DNA from: Propionibacteriaceae bacterium
Lineage (GTDB): Bacteria > Actinomycetota > Actinomycetes > Propionibacteriales > Propionibacteriaceae
Reading direction: 5' to 3'
DNA length: 32,000 nucleotides
Assembly (NCBI GenBank): GCA_031256725.1
Contig: JAIRQE010000011.1
Location: forward strand, 6,547-38,546
Shown here piece after piece: positions 5,634 to 32,000 of this stretch; within the stretch, counting starts at the first letter, position 1; each line of letters starts with the position of its first letter. Under the pieces are notes generated by a model. It saw nothing but the letters and a program-made list of their open reading frames with translations. It ran no database searches and had not been told where the DNA came from. The position numbers and the translations under genes are program-made.

Positions 5634-7070
5634 ATGGAAGATGAGGGGTCAGTGGAGTTTCGTGAATACCTAACCGTACTGCGGAAGTATTGGTTTAGCA
5701 TTATTCTTCTCACCCTGCTGGGTGCAGGTGCCGCAGGTGCCTATATCTATGTCACTCCTCCTGTGTATACCGCACGAAGTACGGTGTTCCTCACTGTGAA
5801 TATTGGTAACTCGGTGAGCGACTTTGCGCAAGGGTCCAACTATGCGACCTCTCAGGCTCGATCCTTCGCACAGATTGTGACAACTCCTTTAGTGTTGGAC
5901 CCGGTTATCAAGGAACTCCAGCTCACGACCACTGCATCGGGTTTGTCCGGCAGGATCTCGGCAACGATCCCCACAAACACTTCCCTCATCACTATTACTG
6001 CGCGTGACGGCGATGCGAAGCTCAGCGCAGACATCGCTCAGAAGGTCGCCATGAGCCTCCGTACCGCTATTGGCAAGCTGACTGCCACGGACAAAGATGG
6101 ACGCCCTGTGGTCGAGGGTACGATCGTTACCCCCGCTGCGACCCCAGTGTCACCCACAAGTCCGCAGGTCACCCAGACTTTGGCCTTGGGTATCGTGGCT
6201 GGTTTGGCTATTGGTATTGGTCTGGCGGTTTTACGTAAGTCTCTCGACGTTCGAGTACACACCAGCAAGGATGTTACCGACGCGATCCCCTACCCTGTGG
6301 TCGGCTCAATTCCTAAGGATCCGGTTCTTATCCGAGACCCGGTGATCATGATCGCACAACCAACCTCGGGTCTCGCTGAAAGATTCCGCCAGCTTCGTAC
6401 CAGCCTCCTCTTCTTCAATATTGAGGATGATAAGCCCTTCAACTTTGTTGTCACCTCCGCTCTAGAGTCTGAGGGTAAGACTTCGATCGCTGTCAACATT
6501 GCCTATGCCTTGGCTGAGCAGGGGGACCGTGTGCTCCTGATCGACGCTGACTTGAGGCGTCCAAGGGTTGCTGCCTACCTCCAGCTTGAAGGCGGTGCCG
6601 GTTTGACCACGGTACTACTGAATCGTGCCCGTTTCGGTGACGTGGTTCAGTCCCTGGGCGTGGGGTATCCTGATGTACTCGCTTCTGGACCTGTACCTCC
6701 GAACCCTGCAGAGTTGGTTGGTTCCAGGCGAATGAAGCAACTCCTTGAGCAGGTCTCCAACCACTATCAGGCTGTTGTGGTTGACGCAGCCCCCCTACTG
6801 CCAGTAGCGGACTCCTTGTCCCTGCTTCCTCACGTGACTGGCGTGGTCATGGTCAGTGCCGCAGAGCGTGCAACCATCCCTGAACTGAAGCTGGCTGTTG
6901 AATCTGTTGAGCGTACGGGCACCCCAATCATGGGTGTCGTGATGAACAAGCTGCGCCGTCATGGTGGTCGTAGTTCCCATTACTACTACACCTATGAGCA
7001 ACGTGACCCCAATAATCTCACCAAGGCTGATAAGAAGAGGGGCAAGAGGGCTTCCTCCAGCTTCTCCTGA
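5634..7070 (+). CDS. Polysaccharide co-polymerase/BY-type protein-tyrosine autokinase (Wzc/CpsCD-like fusion)
   Basis: The N-terminal Wzz-like domain has two TM segments (FREYLTVLRKYWFSIILLTLLGAGAAGAYIYV ... LALGIVAGLAIGIGLAVL). The C-terminal P-loop ATPase has Walker A TSALESEGKTS, A' VLLIDADLRRPR and B VVVDAAPLL. The tail is Tyr-rich (SSHYYYTYEQ). GTG 5652 is an alternative start. Confidence 0.85.
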   Translation: MEDEGSVEFREYLTVLRKYWFSIILLTLLGAGAAGAYIYVTPPVYTARSTVFLTVNIGNSVSDFAQGSNYATSQARSFAQIVTTPLVLDPVIKELQLTTTASGLSGRISATIPTNTSLITITARDGDAKLSADIAQKVAMSLRTAIGKLTATDKDGRPVVEGTIVTPAATPVSPTSPQVTQTLALGIVAGLAIGIGLAVLRKSLDVRVHTSKDVTDAIPYPVVGSIPKDPVLIRDPVIMIAQPTSGLAERFRQLRTSLLFFNIEDDKPFNFVVTSALESEGKTSIAVNIAYALAEQGDRVLLIDADLRRPRVAAYLQLEGGAGLTTVLLNRARFGDVVQSLGVGYPDVLASGPVPPNPAELVGSRRMKQLLEQVSNHYQAVVVDAAPLLPVADSLSLLPHVTGVVMVSAAERATIPELKLAVESVERTGTPIMGVVMNKLRRHGGRSSHYYYTYEQRDPNNLTKADKKRGKRASSSFS

Positions 7071-11565: not shown

Positions 11566-12479
11566 GCCCACGTCATTGGATCAACCAACCAGGGTTCTTT
11601 CGGAAGTACAACGGGATCAAATCGATCCACCAACTGGTCAAGGCCGACGGACTCATCCTCAGTTGCCAGATTCAGGGATTGAGCTAGGTGGTTGAGGATC
11701 ACTTGGGTGGATATGCCTTTCTTGCGTAGTCTCCCCAGGGACACTGCCTTGTCTCTTTTAGCCATACGGGTACCATCGCCTGAATAGACCAAGGGAACAT
11801 GAAGGTATTCGGGTGGAGTGAACCCCAATTGGGTGGCAAGCCATGCTTGGCGTGGGGCTGATTCGAGGAGATCATCCCCGCGTACGACCTGATCCACGAA
11901 CTGGAGTCCATCGTCAACAACCACGGCAAAGGTGTAGGAGAAGACCCCATCTGCGCGGCGTACCACAAAATCATCGACCTCATCGCTGTGGTGACCATGA
12001 AGAAGATCAGTGACCCCCACCACTGTTGAGGAGGCGTTGATCCGAAGTGCTGGTGGTCGTTCCCTTCTCAATGCTGTGCGTTCATGGGTGGACAGATTCC
12101 GACATGTGCCGGGATAACGGGGCAGAGTGCCGTGAGGGGCTGTACTGGCTTCAAGGATGTCTTTGCGTGAGCAATAACACTCATAAATGAGGGGTTCGAG
12201 TCGTGAAAGAGCCTGTTCATAGACCAGGCTACGATCCTGTTGGCGAAGTATTGGTCCATCATGGGTGAGACCCAGGTCGGTGAGATCCCTGAGCTGGTTG
12301 CATGTGATCTGGTCAGCATCCTTCATGCGTGGGCCATCAAGATCCTCGATTCTTATGAGGAAATCTCGACTGGTCGAACGAGCCATTAGCCAGGCCACAA
12401 GTGCGGTTCTCAGGTTTCCAATGTGAAGATCCGAGGTCGGTGTTGGAGCGAAACGTCCAGACATATGCAGTGGGTTCAC
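11562..12479 (-). CDS. gluQ: Glutamyl-Q tRNA(Asp) synthetase (truncated GluRS paralog)
   Basis: 305 aa, a catalytic domain only. It has the HIGH-type motif RFAPTPTSDLHIGNLRTAL and a KMSKS-like GTRMAKRDK. There is no anticodon-binding domain, as expected for GluQRS. Confidence 0.85.
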   Translation of the reverse strand: MNPLHMSGRFAPTPTSDLHIGNLRTALVAWLMARSTSRDFLIRIEDLDGPRMKDADQITCNQLRDLTDLGLTHDGPILRQQDRSLVYEQALSRLEPLIYECYCSRKDILEASTAPHGTLPRYPGTCRNLSTHERTALRRERPPALRINASSTVVGVTDLLHGHHSDEVDDFVVRRADGVFSYTFAVVVDDGLQFVDQVVRGDDLLESAPRQAWLATQLGFTPPEYLHVPLVYSGDGTRMAKRDKAVSLGRLRKKGISTQVILNHLAQSLNLATEDESVGLDQLVDRFDPVVLPKEPWLVDPMTWA

Positions 12480-12542: not shown

Positions 12543-13508
12543 ATGGCGCCAGCAGTTTCGGAAAGAATCCTCAATCTGATGATAGCCCTGCTCGTTACCA
12601 AGAGACTCATTTCTCGCAGGGAGATCTTCCAACGTGTCTCAGGATATCTCGCTATTGATCAAGACCGTGATGTGATCACAGAGGACCCAGCTGCTGATCG
12701 GAAATTCCAAAGGGATCTTGAGAATCTCCAACAGATGGGAATTGAGGTCATCAAAGGTACGATCCAGGATGCCAATCAAGACGTGGGTGGGTACAGAATC
12801 GATCCAGGATCCTTCTATCTGCCAGACATCCACCTCACACCGCGAGAAGCCATGGTGGCAGCAATGGCCTCATCGGCATGGTCGGAAGCAAGCCTCGCCT
12901 CAGGGGTGGGGACTGCTGTTAGGAAACTGCATACCCTAGGGGAGGAAACCAGTGGAGGCCAGTCCTATTTCCTGACACCACGACTGAGGGCGGCTGAGCC
13001 TGGGCTAGCCCAACTGTGGGAGGGGTTCACAACACAGTCGACGGTGGAGTTCACCTACAACTCACGGGTACGACGGGTCAACATCTGGAGGATGATTGGA
13101 CGATCGGGTGCGTGGTACGTCTTAGGTGAGAGTGTGGGTGAGGGGCCGAAGATTTTCAAGGTCGCCCGAATTGAGGACACTACACGTGTACTGCCCACTC
13201 CCCAAGGTTATGAAACCCCCGATCAAGCAGTGATTTCTCGTGAAGCTGAGTCCTTGAATCCGCCGCCGGATTCTTCGGTTCTGGTCGCTATTCGAGTCTC
13301 GACCACAGGAGTACTACGCAAACGGGGGACACCTGTGGACAGTGATGGTCCTGAGGGGTTCGATGTGTACAGGATTCCCTATGCCCGTGTCGATGAAATT
13401 GTCTTCGCGATCTGCGCCTCAGGCCCAGATGTCCTAGTTCTGGAGGAAGGGGAGGTACGTGATCGTGTCATAGCTCAACTCCAATTCATTGCAGGAGGTC
13501 AGTCATGA
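12543..13508 (+). CDS. pafB: PafB-like HTH/WYL-domain transcriptional regulator
   Basis: The N-terminal wHTH is ERILNLMIALLVTKRLISRREIFQRVSGY. FQRDLENLQQMGIEVI, GYRIDPGSFYLPDIHLTPREA and the WYL-type GAWYVLGES closely parallel mycobacterial PafB as I remember it. The SD GGGAGGG precedes the ATG. Confidence 0.75.
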   Translation: MAPAVSERILNLMIALLVTKRLISRREIFQRVSGYLAIDQDRDVITEDPAADRKFQRDLENLQQMGIEVIKGTIQDANQDVGGYRIDPGSFYLPDIHLTPREAMVAAMASSAWSEASLASGVGTAVRKLHTLGEETSGGQSYFLTPRLRAAEPGLAQLWEGFTTQSTVEFTYNSRVRRVNIWRMIGRSGAWYVLGESVGEGPKIFKVARIEDTTRVLPTPQGYETPDQAVISREAESLNPPPDSSVLVAIRVSTTGVLRKRGTPVDSDGPEGFDVYRIPYARVDEIVFAICASGPDVLVLEEGEVRDRVIAQLQFIAGGQS

Positions 13509-14449
13509 GCCGATCCATTGAACAGGTGGCGCGCCTGCTTGTTGAGATCCCTTATATCCAAGCCCGCCCAGGAGTGAAACTATCCCAGATTGCCCGTACC
13601 CTGTCGATCACGGAGGCTCAGGTGGTAGCCGACCTTGAAGTCGCTCGATGGTGTGGGTTGCCTGGAGGGTACTCTGAGGAGCTTATCAACATCGACTATG
13701 ACATTGTTCACGGTGAGAAGGCTGTCCACATTCACAATCCCACAGGCCTTGATCGACCCATGAAGCTCACCATTGTTGAGGCTGCAAGTCTGCGCTTGGC
13801 ACTGATGGCCTTAAGGGATCTCGTCGAAAAAGACCTCGTGGGTACCATTGACTCTCTTCTGGAGAAGATACTCCTTCCAGCCCATATGAGTGTGGATCTT
13901 CACCTATCAGGAGGAGACCAAGATATCCGTGACCGTGTACAACATGCCATTCACAATGCTGAACGCCTGGAATTGGCCTATGCAGGTTCCAAGAGTGGGA
14001 AGAATAGTACCCCTGTGATCGACCCCGTGGGTGTACGCGTCCTTGAAGGGAAGTCCTATCTTGTTGCCTATCGCGTCGATAGTGATCCAGGGTGGCGCCA
14101 CTATCGCTTCGACCGTATTCTTGAGGCTCGCCCCACGGGTGAGGCAACCTTTGGACATGGGGATCCACCATCCCCAGATGATTGGGCTAAGAATCTTGCT
14201 TCCAGCGAATCAGCTACCCTGGTCGTCACCAAAGAAGGCAGATGGATTCAGGAGTACTATCCCACAATCTCAGTTGTTGACTGTGACAATGATCTTACCC
14301 GTATCACGATCCCAGTCATGGAACAGGCATGGCTTTTGAGGCTCATCCTTGGGTTGGGGGAACGTATCACATGTGTTGAACCTTCGATCTATCGTGATGC
14401 GGCTCGCAGTCTAGCTCAACAGGCACTCGACGCCTATGATGACTTGTGA
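13505..14449 (+). CDS. pafC: PafC-like HTH/WYL-domain transcriptional regulator
   Basis: VARLLVEIPYIQARPGVKLSQIARTLSITEAQVVADLEVARWCGLPG and DRPMKLTIVEAASLRLAL parallel PafC. The WYL-type motif is KSYLVAYR. It has an ATGA overlap with pafB and the SD AGGAGG. Confidence 0.75.
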   Translation: MSRSIEQVARLLVEIPYIQARPGVKLSQIARTLSITEAQVVADLEVARWCGLPGGYSEELINIDYDIVHGEKAVHIHNPTGLDRPMKLTIVEAASLRLALMALRDLVEKDLVGTIDSLLEKILLPAHMSVDLHLSGGDQDIRDRVQHAIHNAERLELAYAGSKSGKNSTPVIDPVGVRVLEGKSYLVAYRVDSDPGWRHYRFDRILEARPTGEATFGHGDPPSPDDWAKNLASSESATLVVTKEGRWIQEYYPTISVVDCDNDLTRITIPVMEQAWLLRLILGLGERITCVEPSIYRDAARSLAQQALDAYDDL

Positions 14450-22640: not shown

Positions 22641-22885
22641 CGGTTCACAACAAATGTACCCCACCAACCTCCTATTATGTATCATCATTATTCTCAACTC
22701 AAATAACATACTACCCATTCAAAACCACAAGCAGATCGCATCAGGGAATCACGATTCGTCTTGCCTCAAGTCAAATTTGGTTTTCGACTCTGCTAGCCAC
22801 GAGAATCTGGTGAAAAAGAGACAGTTTTTGCTGATGGGAATGAACTGGGGAAAGGTGATGTGGTTTACTCGTTAGGCCGAAATCA

Positions 22886-23494
22886 TTATCCTTCGTGGGG
22901 AGTCCAAAGAGAGGTCCATTGGATTCCGCAGTCGGCTAGCATCATTCGTACTAGGGGGAGGGAGAGGCCTACTACGTTGTGGGGGTCTCCTTCGATGCCG
23001 GTGATGAAGGGGCCGCCTAAGGCGTCGATGGTGAAGCCTCCCGCTACGTGTTGGGGTTCGCCGGTTGTGACGTAGGCGTCGATTTCGTCGTCGGTGAGGT
23101 CAGCTACGTGGATGATGGTTTTTGCGGCTCGGTTGGCTCGTTGTACTTCGTCTTGGGAGACGATGATGTGGTGGCCTGTGACGAGGACACCTGAGCGTCT
23201 ACGGGTGCGTTTCAGGAGGGAGATGGCGGCTTCTTTGGAGCCGGGTTTGCCTTGTGCTTTGCCTTCGAAGTCCAGGATCGAGTCGCAGCCGATGATGATG
23301 GAGTCTTTGGGGGAACCGAGGTTGGCGAACACTGCCTCTGCCTTCTTTTCGGCTAGGAGACAGGCTAAGTGGGTGGGGGTGTCGGCTGCGAATTGGGACT
23401 CATCAACCTCGGAGATGACAACCTCGGGGAAGGTACCTGCTGAGCGCAGTGTTTGAAGACGAGCCGGGGATGCGGATGCGAGAATGAGTCTCAT
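22886..23494 (-). CDS. maf: Maf-like nucleoside triphosphate pyrophosphatase
   Basis: MRLILASASPARLQTLRSAG is the canonical Maf N-terminus. The 20-codon upstream extension in the track ORF (to 23554) is not family-like and would overlap birA. Confidence 0.85.
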   Translation of the reverse strand: MRLILASASPARLQTLRSAGTFPEVVISEVDESQFAADTPTHLACLLAEKKAEAVFANLGSPKDSIIIGCDSILDFEGKAQGKPGSKEAAISLLKRTRRRSGVLVTGHHIIVSQDEVQRANRAAKTIIHVADLTDDEIDAYVTTGEPQHVAGGFTIDALGGPFITGIEGDPHNVVGLSLPLVRMMLADCGIQWTSLWTPHEG

Positions 23495-23512: not shown

Positions 23513-24301
23513 ATGAGTAAATTTCGGTGGCTTAACCAGGAAACTCTTAACCAACTCCCATTTTCTTTGCCTTGGAAAATTGAGGTTGTTGAGCAGACTG
23601 GTTCCACCAACGCCGATCTTGCGGCTCGGGTACGCGCGGGGGGCTGCCCCGATTACACAGTGTTGGTGACCACCGATCAGTGTGGCGGACGCGGTCGGCT
23701 AGCGCGTACCTGGACTGCACCTGCGGATACTGCTGTGGCAATGTCGATGGCCGTACCACTGAAGCCCTTTGAAGGACACTGGGGTTTGCTGCCCTTGGTG
23801 ATGGGGAGTGCAGTAGCGGGGGCCCTGTTTGACTGGGGGGTTAAAGCGAAGCTGAAATGGCCGAACGATGTGTATATCGGGGACAAGAAAGTTTGCGGGA
23901 TTCTGGGGGAGTTTGTGGGAGGTACCGCCGTTATCGGGTGTGGAATCAATGTCGCACAGACCCAGGAAACCATTGGGTACGAAACTGCCACATCACTAGC
24001 GATGACTGGGGTTCATGTCACCCATGATGAAGTCGTCTCCCGTGTACTGGATCATTTCGGGCGAGCCCTGGATGTCATGACCACCGAAGATGGACCAGCT
24101 TTGCTGAGGGACTTTTATCGAGCATCCAGTATGACCCTGGGTCAACAGGTCAGGATCTATCATGATGAGGATTCCTATGTTGAAGGCCTCGCCATAGATA
24201 TTTCCGATGATGGCCAACTTCTAATCGACATAGATGGAGAGGTACAGTCCTTTGCCAGCGGAGACGTGTACCATCTTCGTTCGCAAGACAGGGGTGACTG
24301 A
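23513..24301 (+). CDS. birA: Biotin-[acetyl-CoA-carboxylase] ligase (no N-terminal HTH visible)
   Basis: It has the biotin-binding loop QCGGRGRLARTWTAP, KWPNDVYIGDKKVCGILGE, and a C-terminal SH3-like tail. I prefer ATG 23513 (MSKFRWLNQ...) over the track start at 23453. Confidence 0.85.
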   Translation: MSKFRWLNQETLNQLPFSLPWKIEVVEQTGSTNADLAARVRAGGCPDYTVLVTTDQCGGRGRLARTWTAPADTAVAMSMAVPLKPFEGHWGLLPLVMGSAVAGALFDWGVKAKLKWPNDVYIGDKKVCGILGEFVGGTAVIGCGINVAQTQETIGYETATSLAMTGVHVTHDEVVSRVLDHFGRALDVMTTEDGPALLRDFYRASSMTLGQQVRIYHDEDSYVEGLAIDISDDGQLLIDIDGEVQSFASGDVYHLRSQDRGD

Positions 24302-24395
24302 GTGGCGAGCACCATCCACAATGCGAAATTAAAAAGAAATCTGAGGTGGAAATCTTAAATAGTGAGATCTTTACGCGAGAGTGTCCTATCCGTGA

Positions 24396-24424
24396 TTGAC
24401 GGCAAGGCAAATATATGCAAGAAT
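24396..24424 (+). promoter_or_regulatory. Candidate promoter for the rhs gene
   Basis: TTGACG (24396-24401), then 17 nt, then AAGAAT (24419-24424), in an AT-rich 155-bp spacer. A short palindrome atgca-agaa-tgcat (24415-24428) overlaps the -10. The SD AGGGAG (24447-52) precedes ATG 24457. This is a sequence-pattern guess only. Confidence 0.25.
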
Positions 24425-24456
24425 GCATGACATCAGAATGATTTCAAGGGAGTGTC

Positions 24457-27400
24457 ATGTCTGGATTTTCGCGGCCTTGGTTGGCGCCTGCTGTTATTGT
24501 TGCTTTTTCGGTGTTTATTACGATGTCACCAGTATCGAGTAATTGGAGTGCTCGTGCTGATAATGAGGTGGTAGAGGAGATTCCGGTAGTCCCCGCAAAT
24601 GATGATTCCTTTACTCCTGTTCCATTGGAAGATATATCTTCAGACAACGGGCCAGGTTCTGAAGATACAAACGATTTGCCTGGAGTCGAGGAATCTGAGG
24701 ACTCGGTAGACCAGGTGAGTGATTTTAACCCAGTTTCTGTCGTAGAGGAGATATTGCCTGAGTCTGCAGTTGTACCCTCCAGTGACTCGCTGGTTCTGGA
24801 TCCTAATAGTTATGAATCCGTATCGGGAGCGGTGGATGCAACCTTTGCCCCCTTGCCCTCACCGGAAAACCCTGAGGAAGTTGGCTTACTATCGGGTGCT
24901 TGGATGGATTTTGAGCCAGAGCCCATAGTTCAGCCTGCTAGTGAACCTGATGTTTTGATTTGGCAGCGCGCAGGTGGATCATCGTTGGTGTCGTTGGAGT
25001 CTCCAAGTGATGGACCACAAGCGAGCGATGCCCCAGTTGGTCTAGTTGTGTCCTCGTGGCCTGAGATGAATAACAAGCAAGTGACTGACAATGAGGTTCT
25101 TCATCCTTCTTTGAGGGAGAGGATAGTAATTTCAGCACTCTATGCCTATATAGCCATCATGAAGTGGGTTATCAGAGTAGTTGGTTCGTCCAAGCCAAGT
25201 CTCAAGGGCATTGCGATTCTTCCCGTTGAGCCTTTAGCGGAGTTAATTGATCGAGTAAAATCGTTACAGTCTGTTCAGTTGAAACCAGAGGGTTATGCGA
25301 TAAATGTAGGGCTGACTCCAGTTCTGGTGGCTTCAGTTGTCAATGATGTTGAGGGGGTTTTATATGCATATCAATTCACTGTGTGTCCTGGGAATACTAG
25401 TCGTGGATTAGGGGCTTGTGAACAATCTATAAAACCGGTGGCTCAATCAGGGTGGACGGGTCCGGAGTGGAGGATTCCAGAGGGAGTTTTGAGTCCTGAT
25501 TCTTATTACACGTGGACGGTGTCGGTGGGTGAAGTTTCTTCTTCTGGGGTCCCCGAAGCAGCGTCTGCCTATAATGCTGTTCGAGCATTCTCGACAGGTG
25601 GCCATTTCATTGAACCTCCCATGGCCGCAGCGCCATCAGCGCCATCGCTTACACTTCAAAGTCCATCGGATGGTGCTATTCTCTCAACAGTCAAGCCAAC
25701 GTTGGCTTTTAGTTACCTGACTCCTGCGTCGGGGACTTCCTTCAGTTATTCCATCTATGTAGATGCACTTGATAAGTCCTTGGCATGGCAGACTCCACCA
25801 ATGACCTCCAATAAGTCGTCGGTATCATATACATTACCTAATTTGCTGTTCTGGAATCGAGGTTATTCATGGCAAATTTCTGCGGCATATTGGGATCTCA
25901 AACCTAATATTATGTATGTTGCACTTACGCCAAAAAGAACTTTTTACCCAATTGTCCCCGTTGCTTCTGAGGCGAAAATTGTTTCAGATCGATTGGCTCC
26001 AATGGATCATTCAGTGAGTATAGCATCAGGTGCCTACAGTATTTCAGTATCCGATGCGAGTATTCCGATTCCTGGTGGATCACTTGCAGTAGTGCGTTCT
26101 TACCGTAGTGTCGATACGGCAGTCCGAGTTCTCGGATCTGGCTGGGCATCAATTCTTGATATGTCTATTTCTACTCCAGCTGGAGCAGCTGGGCCGATTG
26201 TGCGTTTCGCGGATGGTCATGCAGAGAGCTTCGGTACGAACCCTAATGGAAGTTACGCTAGCGCTCCAGGAAACTTGGGAACGACTCTTGTGAAAGCTTC
26301 CGCATCTACATGGCAGGTAGTAGATGATAGTGGGTTTGTGTATACCTTGGATTCTAAGGGTTTAGTTTCAATGCAGGGTGGTGAGGGAGCTAAGGTCACG
26401 GTTGCCCGTAATAGCACTGGCCAAATAACTGCTATTAAAGACGTCCTATCGAATCGAGCACTGTCTATGACTTGGACTGGTTCACATGTCACTAAAATTG
26501 CTGCCACTCCTGCCCCATCAGGGGTGTCCGCTGTATGGACATATCAATATTCTGGTGACAGGTTAGTGAAGGCCTGTTCTCCTTATAGTGGAACGACAAC
26601 ACGATGTACTTCGTATGTGTATGGCAGTTCATCCATGCCCAATGCAATCACGCAAATCACTGAGGCAAATGGTGCAATAACCAAGATTTCATACGTAAAT
26701 GGTGGTGTTGTCACGTCGGTCACGGATGCGGTCAACTCAGTATGGTCCTTCTCGCGTAAGTCGGTCACGGGCAGTACTGAGATCACGGCAACTGCTCCTG
26801 GGTCTATTAAAACTGTTTATATCATTGATTCAATGTCTCGCATTACGCGATTAGTCAATGCGCTTGGTGGGGTGCAAACGTGGACATATGACAACGGTGG
26901 GCGGTTGGCAAAATACTCTGATCCTGATGGTGAATTGGCCATGACATTCGATGATGAGGGACGAGTTTTGTCGAGAATGGTCTGGCGAGGAAGTATTACA
27001 TATAGCAAGCAGTACTACACGTACTGGACAACAAATGATGCAAAAAAGGGCAAGTTGCGCACTATTTCCGATCCAAGGAGTTCATTGGGGGTCGCCCCAT
27101 TGGTTTCTTATGCTTATGACAGCAAAGGGCGTGTAACTCAGGCTATTTTGGGGCCAGAAGCAACCGGGGTGAGAACGAAATATGCTTATACTACGGGCAC
27201 TGAGAGCGCAGTGGGTGGCGGAGTTACTCCCGCCGGGTTACTTGCAAGTGTTACTGATCCGATGGGTGCTGTGACGAAGTGGGCTTATGCCTCAAATGGT
27301 TTGGTTCGGACGCAGACAAGTCCCAGTGGTTTGGTTACCTCTTATGCCTATGACTCTCTTGGGCGTTTGGCTTCTGAGTCTGCATCTGTGAGCGGGGTTG

Positions 27401-30400
27401 AGCGAAAGAACTCTTATACTTATTATGATAATGGTTTATCTAGAGCGGTTACTGGTCCCTCTGTCCGTGATTCGGTGACTGGGTCCACTCGTCAAGGCAC
27501 TGTTATTACAGAACTTGATGCGGTTAATCTTCCAGTGAGAATTACCACGAAGGATTTGATGGCTGGTTCTTCTCAAACTGTAGCCTTGACTTATGACAAA
27601 CTGGGGCATATCACAAAGGTAGTGGGGCCTGATGGTGTCACTCAATCGGTCTATGCTTACGACGCTAGGGGTAACCTGACTTCAGAAACAGATGCTCGAG
27701 GGGCGGTAACAAAACACACCTATGATGTGCTGGGACGTGTAATCAAGAGTGTGGCGAGTGGTTACAAGGATCCCAATGTAACTACTACGCGAGACGTAAC
27801 ATTGGCTACCTATACCTGGACTGCGTCGGGCAGAGTAGCTACTGTAAGTGATGTTAATGGTTTAACCCGGGCTTATTCCTATACTCGTGATGGCCTAATT
27901 ACTTCAGTAGTAGCAAAGGGTGTTGATAAGGGTAAAGACCTTGTTGAGATGAAAACCTCGTATGATGCGATGGGGAATCCTATCATGTCATCATATAACA
28001 ATTCTACTAGCACATGGGTAGGAACCTATGATTCACTTGGACAGTTGTCAACATCTGTTGTCAATGGAGCGTTGACTGAGTATTCCTATGATGCTGCTGG
28101 TCGCATGACCATGTCTCGGTTGCGAACTCTTCTAAAAATCGATTCAACTACTACTTTTACTTATGACAAAGCTGGCCGGGTTACTGCAGTAACAGAGGGG
28201 AGTCCACAACGAATTACACGGTACGCGTATAACGAAGCTGGGGAAGTTACGGGCATTACCGACCCTCGCAGTTCGACGGCAGGTGCTGTGGCATGGACTA
28301 CAAATTACACATACGATGCTACTGGGCGTGTAGTCCAAGTGGTTGCACCGTCAGTGACTCTTGAGGGGAAGACGCAAAGACCAACTACGAAAACAGGATA
28401 TGATGTCTTTGGTAGGCCAGTGAAACAGGTTGCTCCCAACGGTGCTATTACCACTGCTACTTATGACGCTGCTGGTAGGGTCACCAAGATTGTGGAGCCT
28501 AGTGTAGTGCTTTCGACGGGTAAAGCACATACCCCAACTTCATCGTGGACGTACAACGGCGCTGGGGATGTGGTGAGTGAAACTCGACCAGATGGGTTGA
28601 AGTCGACTTTTACCTATGACAATTGGGGGCGTTTAGTTAAGGAAGTAGCGCCCGCATCTACCAGTGGTGGATCTACTCGAGTATCAACATGGGCGTATTC
28701 CAATGGAGGGATTCCTGTGTCGATGATTGATCCGCAAGGACGAAAAGTAACTCAGACTGTAAATAATCTGGGGCAAATCATCTCCCAGTCAGTCTATGAA
28801 GGATCCACCGCACTTACCTCAATATATCAGTATAATATTAGTGGAAACCTCATTAAAGTGACAGACCCTCTGGGTAAGTCTCTGACGATTGGTTACGACG
28901 CTAACCAACAGGTTACGAGTGTGAAGGACGCTGATGGTGTTACTAGTGCGTACTCGTACGATGTTGCTGGACGAACAACCAAGGTCGAATCAGGGGGGCA
29001 GACGGCAGTCATGGAGTACAACGGCCTGGGGCATATGGTGGCCATGTCGCATGTGACGGCTGGTGGATTGGTGACTATGGATACAACCAAATACACTTAC
29101 GATGTAGTTGGTAATGTTCTAAGTGTTGCAGGTCCTTTGGGTACGGGTTATTCCAGCACATGGGATGCTCTGAATAACATGCGAAGCTATACCGAGGGTG
29201 CTGCCAAAACCCAACTGGATTACGATTTATTGGGAAATCTAGTTAAAATGGTTGATCCTAGAGGTAATACAACCACAATGGGGTACAACGCCAGACGGCA
29301 GTTGATCAGCGTAGTGGAACCATCAACAACGTCTCATCCCAACGCAGCAGATAGAACATGGACCAATGCTTACGATGTGATGGGTCAAGCTGTGCAGTCT
29401 ATTGCACCTGGGGCGGTGAAAACGACCCGAACATTCAACAGCGATGGCCAGATTTTAACAGAATCAGCATCTGGAGGAGGAGTAGTATCTGCTAGTCGTT
29501 CCTTTACTTATGACGCTACTGGTCTTTTGACTGCTGAAGCTACACCCAAAGGCAATCAAACCTTTGCCTACAACGGGCGCGGTCTTATGAAGAGTTCAGC
29601 TGGACCTCTAGGGACCTCCTCATTTACGTACGATAATGCTGGTCGAGTCACATCTATTAATGATCCTTCAGGTACGACAGCATTAACATGGACAGCTGCT
29701 GGTCGGCTGGCCTCAGCCACAACAAGTGGAGTTAAGAGAGAATTCACTTATAACGGAAGCGGACAGCTAACGGCGCTTTCTCACCCGGGAGGAAAAACTA
29801 TTTACTCCTATGATGGAGCGGGGCGTTTGAGCGGGGAGACCGTGACCAAAGGACTTTTGTCTGTGGTCTACGGATGGACCGGAACCTATGATCAGGCGGG
29901 GCGTCTAGTTAAACAAGAGGTAAAACCCGCTTCAGTGAAAGGCGCAGGAGTAACCTCATATACATACAATACGAGTTCTCGGTTAACTGGATGGACTGAT
30001 CCAAGTGGAGGCAAGCACTCCTTTGCCTATGATTTGGCGGGAAATCTCACTAATAATGATGGATTAGCTGCAACATATGATCAACGCAATCGACTATCTA
30101 AGATGGGGACCACGAGCTACACCTGGAGTCCTCGCGGAACACAAACTCAAGCAGGGAATGTTGGTTATTCCTGGGATGGTTTTGATCGCTTAACTGCGGC
30201 TGGATCAAGTAAATACACATACGACAGTCTCGACCGTTTGGTCTCGTTGGACAATTCTTCCTTTACGTATGCAGGAGCCAACTTGGAACCAGCAGGTGAT
30301 GGTTCGTCCAAATGGACTCGGGTTGGAGACCAGTTGCTGGCTGTTAATCAGAAGCCGGTTGTCCAGGATCATCATGGGGATGTTCGTGCCACAATTGGTG

Positions 30401-31848
30401 GTGACGGAAGTATTGAGTCCAGTGCATCATGGAAACCCTATGGTTCCATACTCGAAGGTTCCACCACATCGGCTCTTGGTTTTCAAGGGCAGTGGACGTC
30501 TGCCACTTCTCTAGTTCACATGCAAGCTCGTTGGTATGATTCCACAACTGGCTCTTTCCTGTCCCGAGATCAAGCAACGCTTCCCGTTACTCAGGCGAAC
30601 AGGTACCAATACGCAGGTGGTAACCCAATTAACAACGCTGATCCAACGGGACAAACGGTATGTGCGTTAGCGGTTCCTTCCCTTCCGACATTCACGTTGT
30701 GTGTGGCCGCATCGGTTGGATCAATTGCCGCAGGATCAAGTGCCAGTGGCGCTGTGAGTATGAGCATCGCATCTGGGACTGCTGCGGGTACTGTTAGTGC
30801 TTCAATAGCAGGAGGTGCTGCTGTTGCTGGCACTACAGCTGGTGGAAGCCTCGCACTCGGAGCAGTTGGTGCAGGGGTTGGTGTAGGGCTATTCCTTGGC
30901 TGGGGTATTTATGCAAGTTATTTAACAGCTGAGATTTTGCGGGATGGCACAGATCTGTTCTACGAGACTCTTGAGTCGCCTTTATATCGAGACGGAGCCG
31001 ATGGAACCTATAGGTATCCTTATTCACCGCAGCGCTACGGATCCTATTTTGACTATCCACAATATCAAGCCTCTATTCGTTTCGCGGCTGAGATATATAC
31101 AAATAGTCAAGCGATTATAAAACAACTGAAAGCTATGATAGCTCGTCTTGCAGATCAGGCTATCTCTGAGATGTATCGCCAGGCTTCGTACTACGTACAG
31201 CAGGTGGTCGCACAAGCAATGAGTAGTATTGCGGCGCAATTAGAAAGACAGATATGGGAATGGGAGCAAGAGTGGAATAAGTATTTTCTTGACCAAGCTA
31301 TGTCTAAGTGGAAATTTGAGTGGGACGATCTTTCTCGCCCAATCGGGGTCTTGCCTATAGACCTTCCACGATTATGCGAATCATCTTCCTCAGCCGAGAC
31401 TTGTAAAGGCTCTGCATTGGATCACGCCCTGGGTGACATGGGTAAACCGGTTGATCTGATTACTTCATTTGCACCCATCGCGTCTTTGCCTGATGATCCA
31501 TCTCCGGGATCGAATTCTGGGAAGGGCGAGTCCCAAACGGATCAGGCTCCTGCCGAAGCTGCTAGAACCGCAGCACAAAACCCATCTAGTGACAGTGATA
31601 CCGCGCCAGCAATTCCGCGCACTAATAAAGAGGCAACGGAAGCAGCCAAGTCGCTTGGTTTCTGGAAGCTGAGAGGACCAGACAGTCACGGGCAGGCGAT
31701 TTTCACTAATGGAAAGGTGGTTATAAGTCTTGATAAAGACAGACATAATGGAGGTGTATGGAAAATGGCCAAAACAAGAGAGGATTTGAAAAGTAAGTCA
31801 ACACGTATGGGTACCTATGATGGTGAATTGAATAGGATTGGTGACTAA
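24457..31848 (+). CDS. RHS/YD-repeat polymorphic toxin with N-terminal signal peptide and long variable C-terminal region
   Basis: 2,463 aa. The signal-like N-terminus is MSGFSRPWLAPAVIVAFSVFITMSPVSSNWSARA. The RHS entry region is IPGGSLAVVRSYRSVD...LGSGWASILD. About 4 kb of degenerate YD repeats follow (YTYD..GR, Y.YD..G type). The core end is RWYDSTTGSFLSRD...NRYQYAGGNPINNADPTGQ (aa 2025-2066, nt 30529-30654). Then come 397 aa of non-repeat sequence. Confidence 0.9.
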   Translation: MSGFSRPWLAPAVIVAFSVFITMSPVSSNWSARADNEVVEEIPVVPANDDSFTPVPLEDISSDNGPGSEDTNDLPGVEESEDSVDQVSDFNPVSVVEEILPESAVVPSSDSLVLDPNSYESVSGAVDATFAPLPSPENPEEVGLLSGAWMDFEPEPIVQPASEPDVLIWQRAGGSSLVSLESPSDGPQASDAPVGLVVSSWPEMNNKQVTDNEVLHPSLRERIVISALYAYIAIMKWVIRVVGSSKPSLKGIAILPVEPLAELIDRVKSLQSVQLKPEGYAINVGLTPVLVASVVNDVEGVLYAYQFTVCPGNTSRGLGACEQSIKPVAQSGWTGPEWRIPEGVLSPDSYYTWTVSVGEVSSSGVPEAASAYNAVRAFSTGGHFIEPPMAAAPSAPSLTLQSPSDGAILSTVKPTLAFSYLTPASGTSFSYSIYVDALDKSLAWQTPPMTSNKSSVSYTLPNLLFWNRGYSWQISAAYWDLKPNIMYVALTPKRTFYPIVPVASEAKIVSDRLAPMDHSVSIASGAYSISVSDASIPIPGGSLAVVRSYRSVDTAVRVLGSGWASILDMSISTPAGAAGPIVRFADGHAESFGTNPNGSYASAPGNLGTTLVKASASTWQVVDDSGFVYTLDSKGLVSMQGGEGAKVTVARNSTGQITAIKDVLSNRALSMTWTGSHVTKIAATPAPSGVSAVWTYQYSGDRLVKACSPYSGTTTRCTSYVYGSSSMPNAITQITEANGAITKISYVNGGVVTSVTDAVNSVWSFSRKSVTGSTEITATAPGSIKTVYIIDSMSRITRLVNALGGVQTWTYDNGGRLAKYSDPDGELAMTFDDEGRVLSRMVWRGSITYSKQYYTYWTTNDAKKGKLRTISDPRSSLGVAPLVSYAYDSKGRVTQAILGPEATGVRTKYAYTTGTESAVGGGVTPAGLLASVTDPMGAVTKWAYASNGLVRTQTSPSGLVTSYAYDSLGRLASESASVSGVERKNSYTYYDNGLSRAVTGPSVRDSVTGSTRQGTVITELDAVNLPVRITTKDLMAGSSQTVALTYDKLGHITKVVGPDGVTQSVYAYDARGNLTSETDARGAVTKHTYDVLGRVIKSVASGYKDPNVTTTRDVTLATYTWTASGRVATVSDVNGLTRAYSYTRDGLITSVVAKGVDKGKDLVEMKTSYDAMGNPIMSSYNNSTSTWVGTYDSLGQLSTSVVNGALTEYSYDAAGRMTMSRLRTLLKIDSTTTFTYDKAGRVTAVTEGSPQRITRYAYNEAGEVTGITDPRSSTAGAVAWTTNYTYDATGRVVQVVAPSVTLEGKTQRPTTKTGYDVFGRPVKQVAPNGAITTATYDAAGRVTKIVEPSVVLSTGKAHTPTSSWTYNGAGDVVSETRPDGLKSTFTYDNWGRLVKEVAPASTSGGSTRVSTWAYSNGGIPVSMIDPQGRKVTQTVNNLGQIISQSVYEGSTALTSIYQYNISGNLIKVTDPLGKSLTIGYDANQQVTSVKDADGVTSAYSYDVAGRTTKVESGGQTAVMEYNGLGHMVAMSHVTAGGLVTMDTTKYTYDVVGNVLSVAGPLGTGYSSTWDALNNMRSYTEGAAKTQLDYDLLGNLVKMVDPRGNTTTMGYNARRQLISVVEPSTTSHPNAADRTWTNAYDVMGQAVQSIAPGAVKTTRTFNSDGQILTESASGGGVVSASRSFTYDATGLLTAEATPKGNQTFAYNGRGLMKSSAGPLGTSSFTYDNAGRVTSINDPSGTTALTWTAAGRLASATTSGVKREFTYNGSGQLTALSHPGGKTIYSYDGAGRLSGETVTKGLLSVVYGWTGTYDQAGRLVKQEVKPASVKGAGVTSYTYNTSSRLTGWTDPSGGKHSFAYDLAGNLTNNDGLAATYDQRNRLSKMGTTSYTWSPRGTQTQAGNVGYSWDGFDRLTAAGSSKYTYDSLDRLVSLDNSSFTYAGANLEPAGDGSSKWTRVGDQLLAVNQKPVVQDHHGDVRATIGGDGSIESSASWKPYGSILEGSTTSALGFQGQWTSATSLVHMQARWYDSTTGSFLSRDQATLPVTQANRYQYAGGNPINNADPTGQTVCALAVPSLPTFTLCVAASVGSIAAGSSASGAVSMSIASGTAAGTVSASIAGGAAVAGTTAGGSLALGAVGAGVGVGLFLGWGIYASYLTAEILRDGTDLFYETLESPLYRDGADGTYRYPYSPQRYGSYFDYPQYQASIRFAAEIYTNSQAIIKQLKAMIARLADQAISEMYRQASYYVQQVVAQAMSSIAAQLERQIWEWEQEWNKYFLDQAMSKWKFEWDDLSRPIGVLPIDLPRLCESSSSAETCKGSALDHALGDMGKPVDLITSFAPIASLPDDPSPGSNSGKGESQTDQAPAEAARTAAQNPSSDSDTAPAIPRTNKEATEAAKSLGFWKLRGPDSHGQAIFTNGKVVISLDKDRHNGGVWKMAKTREDLKSKSTRMGTYDGELNRIGD

Positions 31849-31851
31849 GTC

Positions 31852-32000
31852 ATGGACTTTGAGGATCGATGGGCGGTGTGGCTGCCTGGATTGACGGCGG
31901 CTCAGGCGGATGAGATTGTTGAACTGTCGCAGGAATGGCCTAATATCTTTGTGTCTGATACAGATAGTCCGCAGGATTTCTTGTTTATTCCATGGGGGTA
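31852..32000 (+). CDS. Putative cognate immunity protein (5' part only, truncated by window end)
   Basis: The ATG lies 3 nt after the rhs stop, on the same strand. The ORF is open to the window edge (MDFEDRWAVWLPGLTAAQADEIVELSQEWPNIFVSDTDSPQDFLFIPWG...). The call rests on the canonical toxin-immunity position. I recognise no family. Confidence 0.45.
   Translation, partial: MDFEDRWAVWLPGLTAAQADEIVELSQEWPNIFVSDTDSPQDFLFIPWG

Follow-up and report, generated by a model that had tools for sequence, protein, structure and literature searches.

A WapA-like RHS protein with a Sec-type leader and an Ntox21 tip, a probable antibacterial toxin of a Propionibacteriaceae bacterium

A 7.4-kb gene at one end of a 32,000-nucleotide stretch of Propionibacteriaceae DNA (positions 6,547–38,546 of contig JAIRQE010000011.1, assembly GCA_031256725.1; hereafter, the window) encodes a 257-kDa RHS protein that has a Sec-like leader and no recognizable secretion genes upstream. 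The locus raises the question of what this protein carries, how it leaves a Gram-positive cell, and what it does to a neighboring one. An initial annotation, made from the sequence alone, read the gene (window positions 24457–31848) as a stand-alone, signal-peptide-type RHS toxin. The analysis described here added the identity of the toxin, which by homology is Ntox21, a 16S rRNA RNase of the type found in CdiA-CT of Enterobacter cloacae. We consider the locus, with a probability of roughly 80%, to be a horizontally acquired, Sec-exported WapA-like RHS polymorphic antibacterial toxin. Positions below are those of the window, and the features of the gene and its flanks all lie on the plus strand.

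Shell, plug and core of the RHS protein

The gene is a single uninterrupted open reading frame (ORF) of 7,392 nt encoding 2,463 residues, and the other ORFs overlapping it are all shorter than 100 residues. Its product is deposited at NCBI as MDR0488506.1 under the name 'MAG: toxin C-terminal domain-containing protein [Propionibacteriaceae bacterium]'. Family models identified RHS_repeat (PF05593; E = 3.7e-116, 16 stretches), YD_repeat_2x (TIGR01643; E = 3.8e-85), DUF6531 (E = 1.5e-8, residues 518–592) and Rhs_assc_core (TIGR03696; E = 6.7e-18, residues 1993–2066), and the scores for repeats, plug and core were all over the curated cutoffs. Three successive parts of an RHS cocoon are delineated by these matches. 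The N-terminal DUF6531 plug (residues 518–592, 26008–26232) holds the motifs SYRS (residues 548–551) and GSGW (560–563). The YD-repeat shell (residues 593–1992, 26233–30432), assigned from the family models and the YD count, spans 4.2 kb and contains 27 YD dipeptides, against one in the remainder of the protein. The RHS-associated core (residues 1993–2066, 30433–30654), an aspartyl-protease plug assigned with TIGR03696 and the motif logic established for Rhs1 (PMC8636562), contains RWYD (2025–2028) and ends with DPTGQ (2062–2066). The initial annotation had recognized the cocoon from these motifs and the degenerate YD repeats; the RHS repeat and core models, matching far above chance, bear this out.

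The motifs at the two ends of the shell allow a prediction of how the protein is processed. In Rhs1 of Photorhabdus laumondii, cleavage occurs after the second of two DPxGL motifs, the Asp of which is catalytic, and a second cut requires the Asp-Pro of the plug signature DPVxxxSGE, a D288N substitution abolishing cleavage (PMC8636562). In the present core, the first of the two DPxG-type motifs is degenerate (SRDQATL) with the Asp retained, and the second is intact; D2062 is predicted to be the catalytic Asp, with release after Q2066. The signature DP(V)xxxSG(E/N) is not found in the DUF6531 plug, which has DHSVSIASGAY instead; both the Pro and the aligned Asp are replaced. An identical degenerate variant occurs in the plug of the relative P0047 (see below), and more distant actinobacterial relatives retain DPQxGN[YF]. 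The N-terminal signature defines only the twice-cleaving RHS members and not the whole family. Because DPTGQ is intact while the plug signature is degenerate, C-terminal release would be expected and N-terminal cleavage is doubtful. The fragment predicted to be released comprises residues 2067–2463 (397 residues, 42 kDa).

The Ntox21 domain at the C-terminus

The last 68 residues of the protein (2396–2463, 31642–31845) are an Ntox21 domain (PF15526), detected with E = 1.6e-21 (76.9 bits) in the whole protein and E = 1.5e-23 (83.4 bits) when the domain was searched alone, the cutoff being 25 bits. The domain also matched the nuclease domain of CdiA-CT from E. cloacae (PDB 4NTQ_A) in a phmmer search (E = 1e-8). 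CdiA-CT adopts a colicin E3-like fold and cleaves 16S rRNA with the catalytic residues D203, D205, H207, and K214 (PMC9086364); all four align to identical residues here (D2426, D2428, H2430, and K2436). Ntox21 was equated with this CdiA-CT by Zhang et al. in 2012 (PMC3482391), and a 2026 review describes it as a BECR-fold RNase that cleaves 16S rRNA. Owing to the homology between Ntox21 and CdiA-CT and to the four identical catalytic residues, the most likely activity predicted for the tip is cleavage of 16S rRNA, leading to translation arrest.

Relatives and exchange of the tip

Only two reasonably close relatives of the RHS protein were found: a protein of Micropruina sp. (P0047, WP_415086328.1), which is about 50% identical over the shell, and a protein from a Logan assembly (P0003), which is 39% identical over residues 270–2148. 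Residues ~270–2066, including two beta-sandwich modules, the plug, the shell, and the core, are common to all three proteins (~40–50% identity). Past DPTGQ, the identity to P0047 is 16–32%, rises to 58% across a Cys-loop motif described below, and is lost again in the toxin. The tip of P0047 is an HNH nuclease followed by an overlapping 151-residue DUF4265 ORF, and that of P0003 is a WHH/colicin-DNase followed by an overlapping 99-residue DUF7716 ORF. In this comparison, which covered the two relatives, the tip is thus replaced on a conserved shell, which as judged from the alignments is the pattern of polymorphic toxins. The initial annotation had asked whether the sequence after the DPxG motif and the next ORF swap as a cassette. 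This idea holds for the tips and the following ORFs, which differ in both relatives, and needs amendment for the Cys-loop motif (residues ~2294–2351), which reappears before the toxins.

The tip also bears on a reading in which the protein is not an antibacterial weapon, acting instead as a surface adhesin, a teneurin-like cell–cell protein, or an anti-eukaryotic Tc-like toxin. A YD shell combined with FN3/Ig-like modules would suit such a role, TEN_YD-shell is among the precomputed Pfam domains of the protein P0002, and teneurin-like proteins of bacteria, which use Sec/SPI, are known from Actinomycetota (PMC13018210). Against this, Pfam detected no NHL propeller, FN-plug, TIP domain, or SpvB/TcB propeller, and the RNase at the tip is of a bacterial, ribosome-directed type and keeps its catalytic residues. 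Moreover, small, putatively cognate ORFs follow the toxin here and in the relatives, a hallmark of antibacterial self-protection. We therefore give this reading very little credence and favor a polymorphic antibacterial toxin.

The Micropruina locus (L138:1–7389) provided two further observations. The annotated GTG start of P0047 lies at 652, and no stop interrupts the frame between it and an upstream ATG, from which MAPHFAKSATSLITALSVLFASIVFQSAPAQA|DG would be translated; the called start is probably wrong, as the upstream ATG would give a canonical Sec leader (…SAPAQA|DG). Synteny with birA, the neighbor of the RHS gene in the window, is absent there, and IS21-family genes (rve and IstB) lie ~3.5–6.4 kb downstream of the Micropruina RHS gene.

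Composition and origin of the gene

The GC content of the RHS gene is 0.48 overall and 0.40 at third codon positions (GC3), the low GC3 being uniform over the whole gene, whereas the GC3 of 19 neighboring core genes (51–24301) ranges from 0.51 to 0.65. The fragment of the downstream ORF (49 codons) has a GC3 of 0.53. Because of the difference in GC3 from the core genes, the RHS gene is, on compositional grounds, regarded as foreign DNA that was horizontally acquired. No tRNA, integrase, or direct repeat was found at the birA-side boundary of the gene, and the window contains no tRNA genes or Rfam elements.

Foreign DNA with few relatives could also be a decaying, non-functional relic of a transferred toxin gene, and besides its composition and the very small number of its relatives, the degenerate N-terminal cleavage motif would fit such a fate. 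The frame nevertheless runs for 7.4 kb without interruption, and the catalytic residues are kept both in the RNase (all four) and in the core (the Asp). The gene is preceded by a good Shine-Dalgarno sequence (AAGGGAG, 24446–24452, read from the sequence, 4 nt ahead of the ATG), and its sequence is the same in two independent assemblies: a Logan contig (L056, run SRR14710887) is 100% identical to positions 11578–31824 of the window. These points make a relic highly improbable, and an intact toxin gene is the better account of the locus.

The N-terminal half and the export route

The N-terminus of the protein reads MSGFSRPWLAPAVIVAFSVFITMSPVSSNWSARA|DNE. From hydropathy, charge, and the A-x-A site, residues 1–34 (24457–24558) are assigned as a putative Sec-type signal peptide with predicted cleavage at ARA|D: an n-region with one Arg is followed by a hydrophobic core (19-residue Kyte-Doolittle maximum 1.9) and by A-x-A at residues 32–34. 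The leader has neither a twin-Arg motif nor a lipobox Cys, the first Cys of the protein being residue 310, and comparable leaders are carried by the relatives. The four close Cys pairs of the protein (310/321, 707/717, 2069/2082, and 2307/2316) would fit an extracellular location. No PAAR, VgrG, LXG, or WXG domain was detected by Pfam in the RHS protein, and the view that a Sec-like leader takes the place of such delivery domains is retained. The architecture 'signal peptide + RHS repeats' was described by Zhang et al. as a standard one of Sec-dependent polymorphic toxins, and Ntox21 with RHS repeats was listed by them in Actinobacteria (PMC3482391).

Between the leader and the plug, the sequence is less informative: Pfam gave no family for residues 1–520 at E ≤ 10, and a PDB sequence search with the N-terminal 520–581 residues gave nothing significant. 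Residues 35–210 (24559–25086) form an acidic, Ser/Val/Pro/Glu/Asp-rich low-complexity spacer with a net charge of −35, which has no Pfam or PDB match and is not kept in the relatives. Two tandem FN3/Ig-like beta-sandwich modules (residues ~270–385 and ~394–499, 25264–25953) were assigned from the sequence pattern and, for the second, from an AlphaFold2 (AF2) model. The mean predicted local distance difference test (pLDDT) scores of the AF2 models were 48 and 45, and their usable parts are one beta-sandwich and one long helix. In the N-terminal model, only residues ~394–499 are confident (pLDDT 70–89, all-beta), and Foldseek retrieved generic FN3/Ig domains for them (best E about 3.5e-4, low TM-scores); the first module is probably a beta-sandwich as well. 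Both modules are common to P0003 and P0047, and the second is also present in Streptomyces-type RHS proteins.

A second hydrophobic stretch, IVISALYAYIAIMKWVIRVVG (residues 223–242, 25123–25182; 19-residue Kyte-Doolittle 1.76), sits between the acidic spacer and the beta-sandwich modules. P0047 and P0003 do not share this stretch, which may be a helix, either amphipathic or associated with the membrane or wall, or else a buried element.

The surroundings of the gene were searched for secretion partners. None of the 29 upstream ORFs scanned in the window encodes a component of the type VI (T6SS) or type VII secretion system (T7SS), a chaperone, or an adaptor, and none was found in the further 6.5 kb of upstream sequence supplied by a second Logan contig (L139), which is offset by 6,546 bp from the window and carries housekeeping genes there. 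Exact look-ups of the RHS protein and of BirA gave no record, and those of IlvC and OadB led to the two Logan contigs, which come from the same strain; L056 stops at 31824, and L139 lies upstream of the RHS gene. Secretion machinery was hence not found across 30.9 kb, all of it on the upstream side. The 38,546-bp NCBI contig most likely ends where the window does, the window being its final 32 kb (32,000 + 6,546 = 38,546). The statement in the initial annotation that the upstream DNA has no secretion genes, chaperones, or adaptors and that birA is the immediate neighbor agrees with these data, and its description of the locus as stand-alone applies to the upstream side.

These results must be weighed against the possibility that the same RHS toxin is not exported by Sec alone, either because the N-terminal stretch is an uncleaved anchor or because dedicated partners (ESX/T7SS, a sortase, a SecF-like protein, or a holin) are needed and are encoded past the contig end or elsewhere in the genome. 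WapA of Streptococcus suis, for instance, needs the adjacent srtB and secF-like genes (PMC12704120), and the second hydrophobic stretch at residues ~223–242 could suit an anchored protein. The leader, however, has a canonical n-h-c layout with A-x-A, and the P0047 equivalent reads AQA|D. No LXG, WXG, or PAAR domain is present, and no partner genes occur upstream here or at the loci of P0047 and P0003. We regard the need for a route other than Sec alone as unlikely, and Sec export as the preferred reading.

The pre-toxin region

Between the RHS core and Ntox21 lie 329 residues (2067–2395), referred to here as the pre-toxin region, with no significant Pfam or PDB match. Scans of 185,579 genomes and JGI metagenomes with the C-terminal 397 residues retrieved Ntox21 modules only and never the linker. 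An exhaustive phmmer search of 1.84 billion representative proteins matched the region to itself and, partially, to P0047 (E = 1e-10, 48% identity, residues ~2290–2380 only). One protein-database search with linker and toxin together was swamped by low-complexity Gly/Ala words and returned a single match. By these searches, the pre-toxin region is nearly orphan in sequence.

Four segments can be distinguished in the region. The first (residues 2067–2160, 30655–30936) is a Gly/Ala/Ser-rich hydrophobic segment defined by Kyte-Doolittle hydropathy, in which C2069 and C2082 occur; it has 19-residue peaks of 1.73 at residues 2074–2085 and 2136–2149 and contains 35 small-xxx-small motifs, and no homolog was found in Pfam, PDB, the genome and metagenome scans, or the phmmer search. 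The second (residues 2161–2295, 30937–31341) is Tyr/Gln-rich and then helical, with no homolog by phmmer; a low-confidence single-sequence AF2 model gives a helix over residues ~2201–2290 (pLDDT 55–83). The third (residues 2294–2351, 31336–31509) is the conserved Cys-loop motif, RPIGVLPIDLPRLC...C...DLITSFAPIASLPDDPSPG, identified through the P0047 match; it is the sole part of the linker with a homolog, is recognizable in P0003 too, and stands ahead of three different toxin domains. The fourth (residues 2352–2395, 31510–31641) is, by its composition, an acidic Pro/Ser/Ala-rich spacer. A similar layout is seen in other RHS proteins: 13 of 39 relatives have a segment scoring at least 1.6 (19-residue Kyte-Doolittle) within 150 residues past the core, and most of the actinobacterial proteins P0003–P0013 have tails of 374–414 residues, often with a poly-Pro spacer.

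In S. suis WapA, a comparable 'PreT-CT' fragment of about 50 kDa has been described, and its entry into the recipient cell was called enigmatic (PMC12704120). One tentative idea, which we consider doubtful at present, is that the pre-toxin region works as an independent translocation device, by which the cytoplasmic membrane of Gram-positive target cells would be crossed. The Gly/Ala-zipper hydrophobic segment, the long helix, and the Cys-loop motif may be its parts, and the Cys-loop motif may then serve as a recombination or processing joint at which different nucleases are grafted. If true, such a device would answer how WapA-type toxins enter their recipients.

The downstream ORF

As noted in the initial annotation, an ORF starts 3 nt after the stop of the RHS gene: the stop codon TAA occupies 31846–31848, and the next ATG is at 31852, from which the frame is open to the window end. 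This start of a candidate immunity gene (31852–32000, 49 codons), assigned by position, is most likely cut by the contig end. At 133 other Ntox21 loci in many phyla, the protein ends with the domain, and no more than a few bases separate it from a small ORF that comes next. The ORFs fall into at least six unrelated families: 76 of ~170 residues (family F1), 17 of ~145, 15 of ~111, 10 of 114, a small family of ~100 residues (F5), and others. Pfam gave no family for representatives of nine groups of downstream ORFs, and the families of ~170, ~145, ~111, and 114 residues look like uncatalogued immunity families for the Ntox21 RNase.

The 49-residue fragment was compared with these families. It scored 10.8 bits against the profile of the ~100-residue family, the best of 2,000 shuffled sequences scoring 6.5 bits, and its four best phmmer matches all belong to that family; the other profiles gave negative scores or no match. 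The ~100-residue family follows Ntox21 in five other loci and includes Leifsonia and Mycobacteriaceae loci. An immunity role of the downstream ORF is thus supported by position and, tentatively, by homology.

The comparison yielded some observations on Ntox21 loci in general. The ~170-residue family accounts for 76 of the 133 ORFs directly after Ntox21 (loci L001–L137; e.g., L001:10240–10755). In L006 (8035–10852), and also in L027, L071, and L118, Ntox21 occurs twice within ~2 kb, and a small ORF accompanies each of the two modules; by this arrangement they are orphan toxin/immunity arrays of the classic kind. In L025, Ntox21 is followed by an ORF that encodes a further RHS core fragment.

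Two independent assemblies break less than ~180 bp apart at the toxin/immunity junction, L056 at 31824 and the NCBI contig, by arithmetic, at 32000. The paired breaks suggest a downstream repeat (orphan cassettes or an insertion sequence element) or strain heterogeneity.

Proposed mechanism and its weighing

On the reading that we prefer, the protein (257 kDa) would pass through SecYEG unfolded, directed there by its 34-residue leader. Once across the membrane, its YD repeats would form a closed shell, plugged at one end by DUF6531 and at the other by the aspartyl-protease core. The core would cleave after DPTGQ (Q2066), and the 42-kDa C-terminal fragment would stay inside the shell. The acidic spacer and the two FN3/Ig-like modules may distance the shell from the cell or present it to a neighbor. 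At a target bacterium, the C-terminal fragment would be freed, and the hydrophobic Gly/Ala-rich and helical pre-toxin part may aid entry of the 68-residue Ntox21 domain into the cytoplasm. There, like colicin E3 and CdiA-CT(ECL), the RNase would cut 16S rRNA at the decoding center and so stop translation. The small ORF 3 nt past the stop most likely encodes an immunity protein that would guard the producer and its kin.

Several findings weigh against this account. The leader was assigned by manual inspection of its hydropathy, charge, and A-x-A site. No recognized cell-wall-binding domain (LysM, DNRLRE, SLH, or CWB) was detected in the N-terminal 520 residues, an absence that also favors export with dedicated partners, as does the fact that the window most likely ends with the contig, so that no downstream DNA is available. 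The plug signature is degenerate, as described above, and the role given to the pre-toxin region is a hypothesis drawn from composition and low-confidence models. On the side of immunity, the available sequence covers just 49 codons of the candidate ORF; the encoded fragment is absent from the protein database, a search of which gave no candidate, and an exact DNA search of metagenomes gave 0 matches. Its score of 10.8 bits is low and makes the family assignment weak, and the Ntox21 toxins nearest to the RHS tip pair with a different family, that of ~170 residues.

Gene neighborhood

The RHS gene is preceded by birA and, before it, maf. The 155-nt spacer between birA and the RHS gene contains one candidate promoter-like site (TTGACG-17 nt-AAGAAT with TG before the second hexamer, 24396–24424), which is the chance level (mean of 1.0 in shuffled sequences), and no terminator-like site was seen after birA. 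The longest ORF for birA (TTG at 23453) overlaps the opposite-strand maf, and the Logan gene call puts the birA start at 23513.

The upstream genes as a whole are actinobacterial housekeeping genes. They encode VanZ, subunits of oxaloacetate/methylmalonyl-CoA decarboxylase, TauE, a Wzz tyrosine-kinase-like protein, ParA, ScpA, ScpB, a pseudouridine synthase, FKBP, a GluRS-like protein, PafB, PafC, a DAG-kinase-like protein, a HelY-like helicase, HisF, HIT, IlvB, IlvN, IlvC, Maf, and BirA. The pafB/pafC-like pair at 12543–14449 (WYL, HTH_PafC, and WCX) adjoins the DAG-kinase-like gene and the HelY-like DSHCT helicase gene, which fits an actinobacterial origin of the DNA and is unrelated to the RHS finding. 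Two small ORFs, at 22654–22875 between ilvC and maf and at 23094–23456 within maf on the opposite strand, have no Pfam match.

Comparison with known systems

Four known kinds of protein were considered for the locus and rejected. A T6SS Rhs effector is not supported, since neither the protein nor the 29 upstream ORFs gave a PAAR, prePAAR, or VgrG match in Pfam. PAAR-Rhs effectors such as P. laumondii Rhs1 and Pseudomonas aeruginosa Tse5 have PAAR, prePAAR transmembrane domains, VgrG, and an Eag chaperone, all absent here, whereas the present protein has a Sec leader and a Gram-positive host. A T7SS LXG/WXG toxin was rejected because no LXG or WXG domain and, among the upstream ORFs scanned, no EssC or WXG100 was found. 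Bacterial teneurin-like proteins are defined by a superfold of FN-plug, NHL propeller, and YD shell (PMC13018210); the RHS protein has no NHL (PF01436) or other propeller match, and its plug is DUF6531. For a Tc toxin (TcB/TcC), there was no SpvB or integrin-like beta-propeller match in Pfam, and no TcA-like gene among the upstream ORFs scanned.

CdiA-CT of E. cloacae ATCC 13047 (4NTQ) resembles the tip in its homologous toxin domain, its identical catalytic D, D, H, and K, and the expected 16S rRNA cleavage. It differs in belonging to a CdiB/CdiA two-partner filament (type V secretion system) of a Gram-negative bacterium with its own cytoplasm-entry domain, whereas the present Ntox21 domain is the tip of an RHS shell protein whose pre-toxin region is unrelated. 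Closer in overall build are the LamG/DNRLRE-RHS proteins of Streptomyces, Kutzneria, and Micromonospora (P0004–P0013). They share signal-peptide-like N-termini, a beta-sandwich and plug, a shell with 28–34% identity, and post-core tails of 374–414 residues, in which a hydrophobic Gly/Ala segment and a Pro-rich spacer frequently precede the toxin. They are, however, 500–1,100 residues longer, and have LamG or DNRLRE N-terminal domains and the canonical DPQxGN[YF] plug motif.

The nearest functional counterpart is WapA of Bacillus subtilis and S. suis, for which there is experimental evidence of Sec-dependent RHS toxins acting in interbacterial competition (PMC12704120). The layout of Sec signal, DUF6531 plug, large YD shell, and core with an autocleavage motif is alike (PMC12704120), as is the long pre-toxin plus toxin fragment (about 50 kDa in S. 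suis and 42 kDa here). The toxins are of RNase type in both cases, those of B. subtilis being tRNases, and an ORF, which in WapA is the immunity gene, lies immediately downstream. Neither a T6SS nor a T7SS is involved in WapA, and none was found among the upstream genes here. Among the differences, the lack of LysM, DNRLRE, or any other detected wall-binding domain and the lack, among the upstream genes, of the srtB/secF-like genes that adjoin wapA in S. suis add to the points that weigh against our reading. S. suis WapA also has a double Rhs shell in place of the single one here, and the degenerate N-terminal cleavage signature, the Ntox21 toxin, and the actinobacterial host are further differences.

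The locus thus belongs to a catalogued class, was already annotated as a toxin by NCBI, and does not change the current understanding of polymorphic toxins. Three things about it are not routine: its pre-toxin region is nearly orphan, a wall anchor is missing, and two assemblies both break at the toxin/immunity junction. In agreement with the initial annotation, no experimental work on RHS toxins of actinobacteria was found in our searches of the literature, and searches there for the sample and assembly accessions gave nothing. The locus offers a compact test case: one gene, with 31 kb of upstream DNA in which no accessory secretion genes were found; a toxin whose fold and chemistry are known; and an unusually long, nearly orphan pre-toxin region open to deletion or swapping. 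It allows one to ask how a 257-kDa shell protein exits a Gram-positive envelope and how its nuclease reaches the cytoplasm of a neighbor. For the Sec-dependent RHS toxins, a class shown to work in Firmicutes, it provides a clean example from Propionibacteriaceae.

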